IMG/VR virus record: IMGVR_UViG_3300028549_000287
Strand: one strand, 5' to 3'
From: a virus
DNA length: 36,493 nt
In this document: piece after piece, positions 3,446 to 7,385 of the stretch
Layout of the letters: every line of letters starts with the position of its first letter
How positions within the stretch are numbered: position 1 is the first letter of the stretch
Notes under the pieces: model-generated
Database searches by the model: none
The model's input: the letters and a program-made list of their open reading frames with translations, nothing else
What the model was told of the DNA's origin: nothing
Made by a program: the position numbers and the translations under genes

Positions 3446-5208
3446 TAAAGATCGTATCCCTAGCAACCAAACTAACCTACACCATTGAACCGAGAAAAGG
3501 CGGGGAAAATGCAATGGCCTGCCCGGAGTGTTCCGGTCAGCGCAAAAACGCTAAAGCTAAATCGTTTTCTTGGAACGAAGGTAAGCAAATTGGTAAATGC
3601 CACCATTGCGAGGCCAATTTCGTGCTATATCGCGAAATGGAACGGCAAAAAGAATACATTGCCCCACTTTGGAAAAATAAGACCTTATTAGCCCCTAATT
3701 TGGTGAAATGGTTTGAGGGGAGAATGATTAAACAAGATACCCTCGTTTTGATGCGAATTTATTCTGACAATGAATTTATACCGCAAATCGGAAAAGAAAC
3801 GAGCGTTGTTTGCTTTCCGTATTTTCAAGATGAGAAACTGGTAAACATAAAATACCGGGACGGGGCTAAGAATTTTAAACTACATTCCGGAGCGCAATTA
3901 ATCCTATACAACGTTAACGGATTAAAGGGCCAAAAAGAGGCCATAATTTGCGAGGGAGAGATAGACGCGCTATCTTATATCACTTGCGGTATTTTAAACG
4001 CTGTATCAGTGCCAAACGGAGCGAATAAAAACTTGCAATATTTGGATGACTGTATCGAGTTATTTGATGCCATGGAAACCATTTATATTGCATCAGATAA
4101 CGACGTTAAGGGAATTGAATTAAGAGAGGAACTATTGAGGCGGTTCGGTTCTGAGCGGTGTAAGATTGTAAACTACAAAGACTGCAAGGACGCTAACGAA
4201 TATCTTATCAAGTATGGCGGCCCGGCCCTGCGTGAAACGATCACTGATGCAATTGAGATACCAGTTACTGGAATAGTAAACCTATCGAACCATTACGATG
4301 ACATTTACAGCCTTTTTGTAAACGGAATGGAAAAGGGATTAGGCATAGGGGCGCAATTTGATACAGCAGTTACATGGGAGTTGGGCCGGTTATTGACAGT
4401 TACCGGTATCCCTGGCCATGGCAAAAGTGAGTTTGTCGACTTCCTTAACGTAAAGTTAAATATTATCCATGGTTGGAAAATAGCATATTTTTCCCCGGAG
4501 AATTGGCCTGTTAAGTATCACTATGCCAAGTTGGTCAGTAAGATAGTTGGCAAGGAGTTTGACGCGAAATACATAAACACCGCTGTATTTGAAAAGTCTT
4601 TTGAGTATGTTAGAGAGAATTTCTTCTTTATAAATCCGGAGGAAGATATGACTATTGAGAACATACTAACCAAGGCTAAGTTTTTGGTAAGGAAGAGAGG
4701 CATTAAGGTTCTTGTAATTGACCCTTACAATAAATTAGAGCATAATACTACGCTTGGACAATCGGAAACGAACTACATTAGCAAGTTTTTGGATAAGTTG
4801 ACCATGTTTGCGCGTGTAAATAATGTTCTGGTGGTTCTGGTCGCTCACCCTACGAAAATGAAAAAGGATTTAACCGGAAACTTTGAAGTGCCATCGCTTT
4901 ACGACATCAACGGTTCAGCAAACTTTTACAACAAAACAGATTATGGAATCTCTGTTTATCGAGATCGAAACGAAAATCAGACTTACATTCACGTTCTTAA
5001 GGTAAAATTTAAGCACCTTGGAGACGGTGGGGTAATTCAGACTTCTTACAACTTTAAAAACGGACGTTACGAGGCTGCAAATACAGAGTTTTCGCAATGG
5101 GTTTTTGATAATTATTTGGACGAAGAAATAAAGCCGGAACCAGAAAAGCCATACCAAGATGAGTTTTTTAATGCTGTTGATAAATTTGAGAATGAAGTGC
5201 CTTTTTAA
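3442..5208 (+). CDS. Bifunctional DNA primase/helicase (zinc ribbon + TOPRIM + RecA-like P-loop)
   Basis: Zinc ribbon CPECSG...CHHCEANF. TOPRIM ICEGEIDALS and ASDNDVKG. Walker A GIPGHGKSEF and Walker B VLVIDPYNKL. Confidence 0.85.
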   Translation: MIKIVSLATKLTYTIEPRKGGENAMACPECSGQRKNAKAKSFSWNEGKQIGKCHHCEANFVLYREMERQKEYIAPLWKNKTLLAPNLVKWFEGRMIKQDTLVLMRIYSDNEFIPQIGKETSVVCFPYFQDEKLVNIKYRDGAKNFKLHSGAQLILYNVNGLKGQKEAIICEGEIDALSYITCGILNAVSVPNGANKNLQYLDDCIELFDAMETIYIASDNDVKGIELREELLRRFGSERCKIVNYKDCKDANEYLIKYGGPALRETITDAIEIPVTGIVNLSNHYDDIYSLFVNGMEKGLGIGAQFDTAVTWELGRLLTVTGIPGHGKSEFVDFLNVKLNIIHGWKIAYFSPENWPVKYHYAKLVSKIVGKEFDAKYINTAVFEKSFEYVRENFFFINPEEDMTIENILTKAKFLVRKRGIKVLVIDPYNKLEHNTTLGQSETNYISKFLDKLTMFARVNNVLVVLVAHPTKMKKDLTGNFEVPSLYDINGSANFYNKTDYGISVYRDRNENQTYIHVLKVKFKHLGDGGVIQTSYNFKNGRYEAANTEFSQWVFDNYLDEEIKPEPEKPYQDEFFNAVDKFENEVPF

Positions 5209-6198: not shown

Positions 6199-6407
6199 TG
6201 GCCGACTTATTCACAACCGTTGAGAAAGGCAAAACATACACTTGTAGCGATAAAGAAGCGTTTGCCTGGTATAATTTCGGCACAGTTGACTTAACAGGGC
6301 AACGCGTTACGGTGATGATGATCTCTGGAGATTATGCTTGCGTTGAATTGGTTTTAGATCGAACAAAAAACTTTGATGTGAAACTTAATACACTAACGAA
6401 ATGCTAA
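6198..6407 (+). CDS. Hypothetical protein
   Basis: Track ORF with a TAATG overlap. Confidence 0.55.
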   Translation: MADLFTTVEKGKTYTCSDKEAFAWYNFGTVDLTGQRVTVMMISGDYACVELVLDRTKNFDVKLNTLTKC

Positions 6408-6610
6408 CGCTATCTCATAACGGAACGGTTTTTATTTCTTCTAGATTTGAGTTTATTTTTAATCGAAAGGTAAAGAAACTACTAGGAATTTATTACGGAG
6501 GAAAATTGTTAAAACAAGGCTGCTTATCTATGTGTGGTGACGTTTTCGAGATTAAGCCGTTCGACTATTTTAAAGATGATACGATTGAGTTTTACAAATT
6601 TAAATACTAG
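6401..6610 (+). CDS. Hypothetical protein
   Basis: Track ORF overlapping the previous gene by 7 nt. Confidence 0.45.
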   Translation: MLTLSHNGTVFISSRFEFIFNRKVKKLLGIYYGGKLLKQGCLSMCGDVFEIKPFDYFKDDTIEFYKFKY

Positions 6611-6615
6611 ACGAA

Positions 6616-6822
6616 ATGGAAGCAAACAAGACCTACATTTTGCAATTAAAACCGATTGCGGAGATTCAACCAGAGCAGTGTAATAGAAATACACTTTGCA
6701 CTAATGGAGAATACTGGATTAATGGACAGGTTTACGAAGTTACTGAAGGAGAATTTGAATGCACTGACGGAGATGGAACAACTTGCTTCAACATTACTCA
6801 CTTCGCTGTTTTACCTAAATAG
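6616..6822 (+). CDS. Hypothetical Cys-containing small protein
   Basis: Track ORF, preferred over the overlapping alternative frame 6656-6859. Confidence 0.5.
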   Translation: MEANKTYILQLKPIAEIQPEQCNRNTLCTNGEYWINGQVYEVTEGEFECTDGDGTTCFNITHFAVLPK

Positions 6823-6870
6823 ACTGATTCTAAACTACGTCAATTCTATTGTGGATTGAAAAAGTATTTG

Positions 6871-6878
6871 TAAATTGT
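6871..6878 (+). promoter_or_regulatory. Promoter-like -7 box (TTGTAAATTGTA class) driving tRNA-like unit 1
   Basis: TTGTAAATTGTAG at 6868-6880 in a coding-free gap. Confidence 0.4.
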
Positions 6879-6983
6879 AGTGTTCTTTGAAAGTAGCATA
6901 TCGCATGGTTGAGAATGTAACGCGCCGAAAGGGAGGTTGCCAAAAATCTAAACGATAGATTGCTTTTAAGTTCTTTGAATGTA

Positions 6984-7153
6984 TCTGGTGTGGCGGAATT
7001 GGTAGACGCATCTAGTCAGGTAGAGGTAAGGAGATTCAGAAAAACTGCCAAGTAGGAAATGACTTGGCGAGTGAGTAAAAAAGTTACCTATTCGAGTTCT
7101 CCAACTGAGCTGTAAAGTAAATTACCTTGCCGGTTCGAGTCCGGCCACCAGAT
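6984..7153 (+). tRNA. tRNA-like gene with a class II Leu(CAG)-derived body, a ~100-nt structured insertion at the variable-arm position and a 6-nt anticodon loop
   Basis: Acceptor TCTGGTG (6984-6990) / CACCAGA (7146-7152). U8 is present, and the D arm GCGG-AATTGGTAGA-CGC is nearly identical to bacterial tRNA-Leu. T arm GCCGG-TTCGAGT-CCGGC at 7129-7145. The hairpin TCTA-GTCAGG-TAGA (7011-7024) keeps U-CAG-G. The extra 7025-7128 has hairpin GCCAAGT/ACTTGGC (7047-7068), and GGTAA (7025-7029) pairs with TTACC (7122-7126). No CCA is encoded. Confidence 0.6.
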
Positions 7154-7209
7154 CAACCACCAGAGCGGACGTAGGGGCCGCCAATATGTGTTTTGATTGA
7201 AGCAATTTG

Positions 7210-7233
7210 CCGGGGTGAAATTCCCCGGTTTTT
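7210..7233 (+). terminator. Rho-independent terminator
   Basis: CCGGGG (7210-7215) / CCCCGG (7223-7228) followed by TTTTT. Confidence 0.75.
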
Positions 7234-7336
7234 ATTTACTAAACCAAAACGCATGAGGTAAAGAGTCGACGAACCGAGGAGCGGGTAGATTATCACAAAA
7301 AACTAAATGATTCGCTATTGGTATAATGAATCAAAA

Positions 7337-7368
7337 AAGAGCATATCTCACCGCGTATGTTCTTTTTT
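7337..7368 (+). terminator. Rho-independent terminator
   Basis: AAGAGCATA (7337-7345) / TATGTTCTT (7356-7364) forms a 9-bp stem with one G-U pair, followed by a T-run. Confidence 0.6.
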
Positions 7369-7370
7369 AC

Positions 7371-7378
7371 TATATTTG
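7371..7378 (+). promoter_or_regulatory. Promoter -7 box TATATTTG, an exact match to TAnnTTTG
   Basis: It ends 7 nt before the 5' end of tRNA-like gene 2 (7386). Confidence 0.5.
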
Positions 7379-7385
7379 CATGATT

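Follow-up and report, generated by a model that had tools for sequence, protein, structure and literature searches.

A putative non-decoding, tRNA-derived RNA gene at a hypervariable locus of a Flavobacteriia siphophage

The usual explanation of phage tRNA genes is that they assist codon usage or make up for tRNAs that are destroyed by host defences. RNAs that mimic tRNAs are also already known and include transfer-messenger RNA (tmRNA), Y RNAs and viral tRNA-like handles. Here, we describe an element of about 170 nt, which is located at positions 6984-7153 (plus strand) of the viral genome IMGVR_UViG_3300028549_000287 of the IMG/VR database; the whole stretch of 36,493 nt that was analysed is referred to as the window. 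The element consists of the top half of a tRNA of the tRNA-Leu type, with an unrelated segment of about 100 nt between the D and T arms. We propose, with a probability of roughly 0.5, that it is an accessory, non-decoding tRNA-derived RNA gene, which represents one allele of a hypervariable locus and acts through its top half and/or as a frame for processing and stability. What seems to be new is a phage locus with two adjacent tRNA-derived genes, of which only the top half is selected and the bodies turn over completely; no description of comparable hypervariable tRNA-like loci of phages was found in the literature, where the nearest case is a study on Y RNAs (PMC4201824).

The element shares several features with canonical class II tRNA-Leu (RF00005), namely an acceptor stem of 7 bp, U8, a Leu-type D stem of 3 bp with a AAUUGGUAGA loop and a T arm with GTTCGAGTC. 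Within a tRNA-type gene cluster of a phage, it possesses a predicted promoter and a terminator of its own. However, it lacks the anticodon stem of 5 bp with a loop of 7 nt, carries U73 instead of A73, contains an insert of 104 nt where tRNA-Leu has a variable arm of 13-15 nt and is called neither by Rfam nor by ARAGORN; furthermore, its orthologous alleles have no conserved anticodon arm. The presence of a tRNA top half and of a large foreign domain between the D region and the T arm, together with the lack of a working anticodon arm, is reminiscent of one-piece and two-piece tmRNAs, but the element has neither G3:U70 nor a tag open reading frame (ORF) nor detected pseudoknots, possesses a complete D stem and is only 170 nt long.

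The tRNA cluster of phage T4 encodes the species 1 and 2 RNAs, which are stable, have a size of about 120-140 nt and tRNA-like ends, are co-located and co-processed with tRNAs and have no known role. They show no sequence relationship to the element, and to our knowledge, hypervariable alleles have not been described for them. Natural tRNA-like processing handles of viruses and eukaryotes are found in the tRNA-miRNA transcripts of murine herpesvirus 68 (MHV68) and in mascRNA; in MHV68 and MALAT1, the cargo lies outside of the tRNA-like body. The element also resembles engineered tRNA scaffolds, in which a tRNA frame stabilises an unrelated RNA and allows it to be processed by RNase P and RNase Z and to receive CCA (e.g., PMC3401473, PMC3753655). 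These handles and scaffolds are, however, engineered or eukaryotic, whereas the variable segment described here is located inside the body of a gene of a bacterial virus, and its role as a cargo would be hypothetical.

A precedent is provided by bacterial and phage Y RNAs of the YrlA type, which mimic the D arm, the T arm and the acceptor of tRNAs; RNase P, the CCA-adding enzyme, TruB and DusA accept them as substrates (PMC4201824). YrlA of Mycobacterium smegmatis is cut by RNase P and receives CCA, and Yrn1 of Deinococcus radiodurans has an 'anticodon' loop of 6 nt (Chen et al. 2014, PMC4201824). The similarity to the element lies in the D-, T- and acceptor-like features of these non-decoding and probably tRNA-derived RNAs and in their occurrence in phages and bacteria (PMC4201824). 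The ends of Y RNAs, however, form a Ro60/Rsr-binding helix with the motif GNCGAAN0-1G, whereas the ends of the element form an acceptor stem, and the string G-N-C-G-A-A does not occur in 6984-7153. Y RNA genes also adjoin rsr. No match to TROVE was obtained when 20 ORFs of the window were compared with Pfam, and no Ro- or Rsr-like PHROGs annotation was found for the others that were scanned. The element matches no Rfam family.

The tRNA frame and its alleles

The element is composed of the following parts:

6984-6990, plus strand: 5' strand of the acceptor stem, TCTGGTG, which forms 7/7 Watson-Crick pairs with CACCAGA at 7146-7152
6991-7009, plus strand: U8, G9 and a class II Leu-type D arm (6993-7009), GCG / GAAUUGGUAGA / CGC with G18 G19
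7011-7024, plus strand: weak hairpin UCUA-GUCAGG-UAGA at the position of the anticodon arm, 4 bp with a 6-nt loop
7025-7128, plus strand: 104-nt insert in place of the variable arm; predicted fold with a long closing stem, in which 7024-7037 pairs with 7094-7127
7129-7145, plus strand: T arm GCCGG-TTCGAGT-CCGGC with G53-C61, U54, U55, C56 and A58
7146-7153, plus strand: 3' strand of the acceptor stem, CACCAGA, and discriminator U73; CAA follows, and hence no CCA is encoded

A previous interpretation of this DNA from its letters alone, hereafter termed the sequence-only reading, had listed a 7-bp acceptor, U8, a Leu-type D arm, a canonical T arm, U73 and a missing CCA, all of which can be read in the sequence. 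U8 and G9 are located at 6991-6992, the D arm at 6993-7009 reads GCG-GAATTGGTAGA-CGC, and a 24-mer of the D-arm region (GGTGTGGCGGAATTGGTAGACGCA) is identical in many canonical tRNA-Leu genes on viral contigs. The acceptor stem, the D arm with G18 G19 and the T arm with its T-psi-C loop and the G53-C61 pair are those of a tRNA. The tRNA frame is not a chance match: when 605 kb of related loci were searched for the combination of acceptor, T arm and D arm, 21 frames were detected, whereas shuffled copies contained none. An anticodon stem of 5 bp with a 7-nt loop containing U33, a three-base anticodon and a purine at position 37 is absent from the element. Instead, the local minimum-energy fold of 7011-7024 is the hairpin with the 6-nt loop that the sequence-only reading had described; it is weak (-1.8 kcal/mol), and within the whole molecule, it competes with another register (probability of about 0.5). 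ARAGORN found the same 6-nt loop when it was applied to a construct with the insert trimmed to a short stub, which was called 'tRNA-?(SeC|Leu)(ca)' with a two-base anticodon.

The native element was not called by ARAGORN in its default and tmRNA modes and at lowered thresholds. Likewise, Rfam scans at the gathering threshold over the whole window and at E<10 over 6400-8200 (1.8 kb), a comparison that the sequence-only reading had proposed for tRNA, tmRNA and group I intron models, gave no match to the element, RF00005 included. With neither a canonical anticodon arm nor a call by a tRNA detector, the idea of a tRNA-Leu-type frame that is unable to decode was borne out. Leucyl-tRNA synthetases (LeuRS) of the E. 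coli type require A73; the presence of U73 thus speaks against charging of the element with leucine.

Relatives of the locus were reached via the small terminase subunit TerS and the ORF upstream of the element. A tRNA-like frame is present at the same place in four related contigs, whose interiors cannot be aligned; the comparison of this position (slot 1) therefore comprises five alleles, that of the window with 169 nt and the following four:

L001: 93 nt; the only clade member in IMG/VR, which shares the frame
L039: 179 nt; an additional hairpin of about 30 nt within the D loop
L041: 123 nt; acceptor AGTGGAG/CTCCACT with three compensatory pairs
L127: 63 nt; acceptor stem, D-like hairpin with a AUUGGUAG loop, 7-nt linker and T arm; no anticodon arm

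The 5' strand of the acceptor, TCTGGTG, is identical in the window, L001, L039 and L127. Across the five alleles, the pairs of the acceptor and the T stem are standard in 60 of 60 cases, and 7 of the 12 pairs are changed on both sides; in the T stem, four of the five pairs are compensatory. In the controls, at most 1 of 500 shuffles reached the observed values, and pairing dropped to 29-52% when the partners were slid. The T loop fits TTCRANT in all five alleles, and a UGG-containing D loop is kept in all of them, though it is interrupted by the hairpin in L039. The remainder of the molecule is variable: the space between the D and T arms ranges from the 7-nt linker of L127 to about 120 nt, the discriminator is U in the window, A in L001 and L041 and G in L039 and L127, and CCA is encoded in none of the alleles. 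The anticodon-like hairpin of the window is conserved in no relative, and the assignment to 'Leu(CAG)', which the sequence-only reading had derived from the U33-CAG-G37 core of this hairpin, could not be established. Selection appears to preserve the 12-bp acceptor/T minihelix, the T loop and, in most cases, the GG-containing D loop, rather than a decoder or the particular insert of the window.

The locus is not present in all relatives. The element is absent from L035, L042 and L128-L130; in L128, the closest relative in this region with flanks that are 83-98% identical, 50 nt stand for the 322 nt at 6878-7199 of the window. L001 and L039 share 88% identity ahead of the element and 95% behind it, but only 39% inside it, where they are unalignable; this is a replacement of alleles rather than gradual decay. 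Judged by these comparisons, the element is one allele of a hypervariable and dispensable locus, a picture that the sequence-only reading had missed. Unusual alleles were reproduced exactly across independent samples (L035/L036/L037 and L128/L129/L130). Of the slot-1 alleles, ARAGORN detects one and Rfam none; ARAGORN also overlooks the majority of the expanded alleles at a second tRNA-like gene, which is described below.

The insert and the second tRNA-like gene

The insert was expected to fold with a closing helix and a solid hairpin, and this is supported by pair probabilities of about 0.7-0.94 for the closing helix and about 1.0 for the hairpin at 7047-7068. The closing stem is capped by this hairpin and a second one at 7069-7093, and a small extra hairpin is located at 7109-7118. 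Compared with shuffled sequences, the insert (z = -2.83) and the whole element (z = -3.47) are unusually stable, with 0 of 200 shuffles being as good. Two internal copies of other parts of the region were found: the T-loop heptamer TTCGAGT is present a second time at 7091-7097, flanked by GGAGA/TCTCC (pair probabilities of about 0.98 in four of the five GGAGA/UCUCC pairs and 0.54 in the fifth), and a near-copy (GAGGTAAGGAG) of the start of the invariant block of the island described below opens the insert at 7023-7033.

Despite its stable fold, the claim that the insert is a conserved structured domain did not hold. A 22-mer of the insert is absent from IMG/VR (exact scan), and no homologues were found by blastn against GenBank phages or by blast against all fetched relative loci. 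L001, the single clade member that IMG/VR holds, shares the frame, and nothing there matches the insert. A 26-mer of the frame and a conserved 20-mer had no match among metagenome contigs, and the frame had none among genome contigs; a second assembly that carries the allele of the window was not found. By these searches, the insert appears to be unique to this genome and is without comparative support. Two further roles were considered for it and rejected. The insert has no complementarity of at least 12 nt to the rest of the window, as would be expected for an antisense regulator of the phage's own genes, and it contains only frames of 17-18 codons, the ends of which are not tmRNA-like, so that a small ORF or tag peptide was dismissed. 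On the minus strand, the hairpin at 7047-7068 together with a T-rich tail scores as a terminator, to which we give no weight.

A second tRNA-like gene (slot 2) is located 230 nt downstream of the element at 7386-7460 (plus strand). It scores 29.7 bits on the Rfam tRNA model, and ARAGORN assigns the two-base anticodon 'gt'; it has an 'anticodon' stem of 8 bp, a UGUG loop and a G1:A72 mismatch. Its counterpart in L039 (1169-1240) is a canonical tRNA-Asn(GUU) with 59.7 bits. Seven slot-2 alleles of 72-135 nt have altered or expanded anticodon arms (window, L001, L035, L040, L042, L127 and L128), and the expanded forms of 98-135 nt are found in L035, L040, L042 and L127. The acceptor and T arms, on the other hand, are nearly invariant, with few compensatory or wobble changes and one non-standard pair in each stem among 96 cells. 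Slots 1 and 2 therefore appear to follow the same pattern: taken together, the minihelix is kept in 13 of 13 alleles, and a canonical anticodon arm is found in only one of them, the tRNA-Asn of L039. This asymmetry matches selection on the top half alone and not uniform decay.

Additional RNA structures surround slot 2. At 7253-7295 and 7333-7378 (plus strand) lie the block GAGGTAAAGAGTCGACGAAC..AGGAGCGNGTAGATTA, which is nearly invariant in all relatives and starts with the mini-ORF ATG-AGG-TAA, and behind it a terminator-like hairpin. The loop of this hairpin (ATCTCACCGCG) is conserved, and its T run merges into the TATATTTG promoter of slot 2. Directly after slot 2, at 7464-7537 (plus strand), lies a conserved structured RNA with the invariant 5' sequence GUUGUAGGU and a terminator hairpin, which shows eight compensatory pairs among six phages and an invariant 12-nt loop, CACCAUAAGAAC. 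This loop could pair with the 5' motif GUUGUAGGU as a pseudoknot. In some relatives, the same island contains a two-piece (permuted) tmRNA according to ARAGORN (L001 3489-3946, L128 4118-4436, L129 2656-2974), with the tag peptides AKYELKAAA and AKQEMKMAA and a G3:U70 pair that is readable in L001. The Rfam model tmRNA_permuted gave 41.3 bits for L001, which is under the threshold of 47; in the window, no permuted tmRNA was detected by ARAGORN in tmRNA mode or by Rfam. Most known permuted tmRNAs come from alpha-proteobacteria, cyanobacteria and some beta-proteobacteria, and their presence on a Flavobacteriia phage is unusual.

Interpretation and rival explanations

The 5' end of a tRNA is generated by RNase P and the 3' end is trimmed by RNase Z, followed by the addition of CCA. 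None of the slot-1 alleles encodes CCA, and a perfect TATATTTG box is located about 30 nt upstream of the element in L001 and L039, which implies a 5' leader and maturation of the RNase P/Z type. For the window allele, transcription would start at the upstream promoter or promoters, host RNase P would cleave at 6983/6984, RNase Z or exonucleases would trim the transcript after U7153, and the CCA-adding enzyme would finish the 3' end. The product would be a stable, L-shaped RNA of about 170 nt, which is unable to read codons, and the same cuts would release the 5' leader and the 3' trailer-terminator RNA as separate pieces. The mature RNA might then engage proteins that recognise the acceptor, T arm or elbow of tRNAs, and/or its frame might serve as a scaffold for processing and stability; the insert would be an allele-specific expansion, which is either tolerated or adds an allele-specific function. 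The sequence-only reading had suggested a mimic or scaffold rather than a decoder, and this class proved to be the right one. A bolder version, which we put forward as speculation with a low probability, is a natural 'tRNA-scaffold display': the clade might use a host-matured minihelix frame to express exchangeable RNA modules, which are swapped by recombination at the frame and diversified by an arms race with host defences (e.g., as decoys or inhibitors), and the 104-nt insert with its three-way junction would be one such effector RNA.

Several observations weigh against the proposal of a non-decoding RNA gene that acts through its frame. The comparison includes five alleles only, the covariation statistics are thin, and all acceptor changes come from a single lineage, L041. 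The intact frames could in part result from the recent acquisition of real tRNA genes instead of long selection. The element is dispensable, as relatives without it exist, its discriminator varies, and the D loop of L039 is disrupted, so that no single protein partner is indicated. As no second copy of the window allele was found, the insert may simply be neutral filler; a chimera made by the assembler is less likely. Moreover, the interiors of the relatives are mostly no more stable than shuffles (z = -1.46, 0.04 and -2.0), which argues against a general role as structured cargo.

Because the locus is dispensable and the sample small, the main alternative is a decaying tRNA-Leu pseudogene, which has lost its anticodon arm, gained junk insertions, has no function and is heading for deletion. 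The unique insert without homologue, the close relatives that lack the locus and the unremarkable interiors of the other alleles fit this view, as do the T-loop-like remnant in the insert and the many short duplications of the region, which illegitimate recombination would give. The sequence-only reading had equated a lack of conservation of the insert with a decayed pseudogene; the insert is indeed not conserved, but a pseudogene does not follow from this, because the frame appears to be clearly under purifying selection with compensatory changes. Decay is expected to be uniform, yet all 60 pairs are intact and seven positions are compensatory next to an unalignable interior, and over both slots, the minihelix has outlasted the canonical anticodon arm by 13 alleles to 1. 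The sharp-edged replacement between L001 and L039 within flanks of 88-95% identity does not resemble decay either, and dead genes of 170 nt with their own promoter and terminator are rarely kept in phage genomes. A simple decaying pseudogene is therefore considered unlikely. Somewhat less probable still is a decoy or sponge that presents a tRNA top half and titrates a host factor, e.g., a defence toxin that modifies or cleaves the acceptor ends of tRNAs, with a variable body as a sign of an arms race. The restriction of selection to the top half, the adjacency of two such genes and the accessory, hypervariable nature of a locus whose alleles are exchanged between near-identical flanks, as is typical of counter-defence loci, would be in line with a decoy of this kind. 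However, no defence-related or partner gene linked to the element was found in the Pfam and PHROGs scans of window ORFs, the discriminator and the D loop differ among alleles, no target is indicated, and the idea offers no reason for the diversification of the body. An assembly artefact, i.e., a chimeric join across repeated tRNA-like sequences, is very doubtful. The island is rich in repeats, breaks directly ahead of terS are frequent in the assemblies of relatives, and the window allele was seen once; but the contig closes via a terminal repeat of 255 nt, other odd alleles recur exactly in independent samples, and the insert forms a closed, stable structure that is placed exactly between intact D and T arms.

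The remaining explanations concern the anticodon region and the topology of the molecule. The loop GUCAGG resembles the core of the tRNA-Leu(CAG) loop, and it was suggested that the element acts as a decoy for anticodon nucleases or as a substrate mimic for anticodon-loop enzymes. A marginal hairpin with a rival register, a stem of 4 bp and a loop of 6 nt would be a poor mimic, though, and the comparison of alleles largely refutes this idea: the U33-CAG-G37 hairpin occurs in no other allele, and L127 lacks an arm at this position altogether, which leaves the nuclease decoy with little credibility. Slightly less credible is a functional decoder, in which the insert is an intron, either of group I or of a small type not described before, or the 6-nt loop decodes unconventionally. 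When introns were allowed, ARAGORN called a 'tRNA-Glu(ctc)' with an intron of 80 nt; the Rfam tRNA model accepts the expanded slot-2 alleles as tRNAs with anticodon-loop insertions, and in the unrelated viral contig L030, 45 nt are inserted into the anticodon loop of a clean tRNA-Leu(UAA). However, the same type of ARAGORN call was obtained for 274 of 300 (91%) constructs with shuffled interiors and is thus meaningless, and the solution itself is poor: its stem of 4 bp includes a G-U pair, position 37 is C, and a Glu anticodon is placed on a Leu-type class II body. The check with introns allowed, which had been proposed in advance, hence yielded no canonical tRNA. In addition, no group I intron or ribozyme family was matched at E<10, and 104 nt are too short for a group I intron (about 200 nt or more). 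The insert lies at the position of the variable arm, and its removal does not yield a canonical anticodon arm; manual single-deletion trials with L035 and L042 never gave a canonical loop of 7 nt in which U33 is combined with a purine at position 37, and L127 and L001 are unable to yield any anticodon arm. The least probable explanation is a miniature tmRNA-like rescue RNA or mimic of trans-translation. The topology corresponds to the tRNA-like domain and helix 2 of tmRNA, with a closing helix directly next to the T arm and without a functional anticodon arm, and genuine two-piece tmRNAs occur in the same island of relatives. The element has U3-A70 instead of G3:U70, however, and hence no alanine identity; its D stem is full, the frames of the insert give GKEIQKNCQVGNDLASE and MTWRVSKKVTYSSSPTEL and thus no tag that ends in ..AA, and neither the tmRNA mode of ARAGORN nor the Rfam tmRNA families (RF00023 and the permuted models) produced a match. 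The view of the sequence-only reading that the element is neither an intron-bearing tRNA nor a tmRNA is in agreement with these results.

Under the proposed interpretation as a non-decoding RNA gene, two neighbouring phage 'tRNA' genes would have given up decoding in most genomes while selection still acts on the minihelix. If the RNAs are made and processed, the top halves of tRNAs would have a selectable function of their own during phage infection, a class of phage RNAs would be systematically overlooked by gene finders, and the tRNA scaffolds that are used for recombinant RNA expression would have a counterpart in nature. If they are not made, the locus would still be a clear example of the remodelling of tRNA genes in phage genomes.

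Flanks, genomic setting and similar frames

The element is flanked by the following features:

6827-6880, plus strand: predicted upstream promoter region P1, including the box at 6868-6880
6882-6983, plus strand: 5' leader, unique to this genome and bracketed by the direct repeat GTTCTTTGAA(A/T)GTA at 6882-6895 and 6970-6983
7154-7208, plus strand: 3' trailer with a second CACCAGA copy at 7158-7164
7209-7235, plus strand: intrinsic terminator hairpin GCCGGGG-TGAAAT-TCCCCGGT and T run

The RNA genes of relatives are preceded by TATATTTG boxes of the Bacteroidota type. A promoter-like box at 6868-6880 had been proposed for the window, and the stretch 6827-6877 around it is indeed conserved (83-85% identity to L128, L129 and L130), but the box itself, 'TATTTGTAAATTG', only approximates the Bacteroidota -7 motif TAnnTTTG, whereas the aligned position is occupied by a perfect TATATTTG in relatives. 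The region 6827-6880 probably has promoter activity. Only the last 17 nt or so of the leader (6966/6968-6983) match L001 and L039; since the leader extends the 5' end, cleavage by RNase P would be needed. In the trailer, the second CACCAGA together with GCGGACGTAGG aligns with CACCAGA-GCGTATGG of L039 and may represent a recombination junction. The terminator that had been predicted downstream was recovered by a terminator scan (7209-7229 plus T run); it is 98% identical in L128-L130, and the sequence of its hairpin is kept in all relatives, even in those without the element. The duplications, i.e., GTTCTTTGAA at both ends of the leader and the two CACCAGA copies, suggest a history of recombination among tRNA-like genes, which fits the sharp-edged replacement of alleles. 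Nested pieces that resemble T arms are also present in the second gene of L127 and in the unrelated contigs L018 and L031.

The window ends in an exact direct repeat of 255 nt (1-255 and 36239-36493), by which the contig closes on itself; it is a complete genome of a siphophage, circular or circularly permuted and about 36.2 kb in size. The phage belongs to a small clade of siphophages with hosts of the Flavobacteriia type. Relatives of its TerS were found in assemblies of Flavobacterium, Maribacter and Dysgonomonas, and the TerS of Flavobacterium psychrophilum phages, the cultured relatives, is 40% identical to that of the window; these phages have no non-coding island comparable to that of the window. 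This island of about 730 nt, in which the element is located, extends from 6823 to 7553; the last early gene precedes it, and a small ORF ahead of terS follows. A replication module with a DnaD-like loader and a primase/helicase lies upstream, and the genes for the small and large terminase, the protease, the portal and the tail lie downstream. In addition to the element, the island includes several parts that are kept in relatives, namely the terminator hairpin, the invariant block (GAGGTAAAGAGTCGACGAAC...), a second terminator-like hairpin fused to a TATATTTG promoter, the odd tRNA of slot 2 and a third structured terminator RNA. A downstream ORF of 60 amino acids has no relatives, and no integrase or RNA-processing gene was found among the window ORFs scanned with Pfam and/or PHROGs. 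The reading of the element as an attP or integration site was rejected, since these scans gave no integrase, the tRNA frame has its two halves and the phage genome is complete.

Directly after the last early gene, a conserved stretch with short palindromes is found (6823-6860 in the window, 2385-2440 in L035, 515-570 in L039); the palindromes read AGAATCATTCT and CAACAAGTTG in relatives and GACTGATTCTAAACTACG in the window. This stretch, which is located ahead of the first promoter-like box, may be an operator that controls late transcription. At 8320-10015 (plus strand), the ORF of the large terminase is short (383 amino acids) and overlaps with the next ORF of 185 amino acids, which has no family match; this pair is kept in L035, L036 and L040. 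Five independent metagenome contigs (L038, L175, L176, L177 and L178) begin less than 210 nt upstream of terS, and assemblies thus tend to break in the island, which fits a region that is micro-diverse or rich in repeats. The contigs obtained last via TerS relatives begin shortly ahead of terS or within it.

Similar frames were also observed elsewhere. Among more distant TerS relatives (L100-L107), a class II-like tRNA frame of 98 nt, GTGGGTG...CACTCAC, with a non-canonical middle is located downstream of terS; in L100, for example, it spans 4890-4987. The same Leu-type 5' half with a large insert is present in the unrelated IMG/VR contigs L010, L018, L031, L021, L022 and L030, none of which is called by ARAGORN, and Leu-type frames with large inserts may thus be a broader phenomenon that is largely missed by standard gene finders. 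The frame of L010 (3640-3856) is 217 nt long, those of L021 and L022 are located at 6333-6449 and 2739-2842, and L018 and L031 contain a nested tRNA-like piece. In L030 (943-1070, minus strand), an otherwise canonical tRNA-Leu(UAA) carries its 45-nt anticodon-loop insertion in an intron-like manner, with the inserted sequence pairing with the anticodon.

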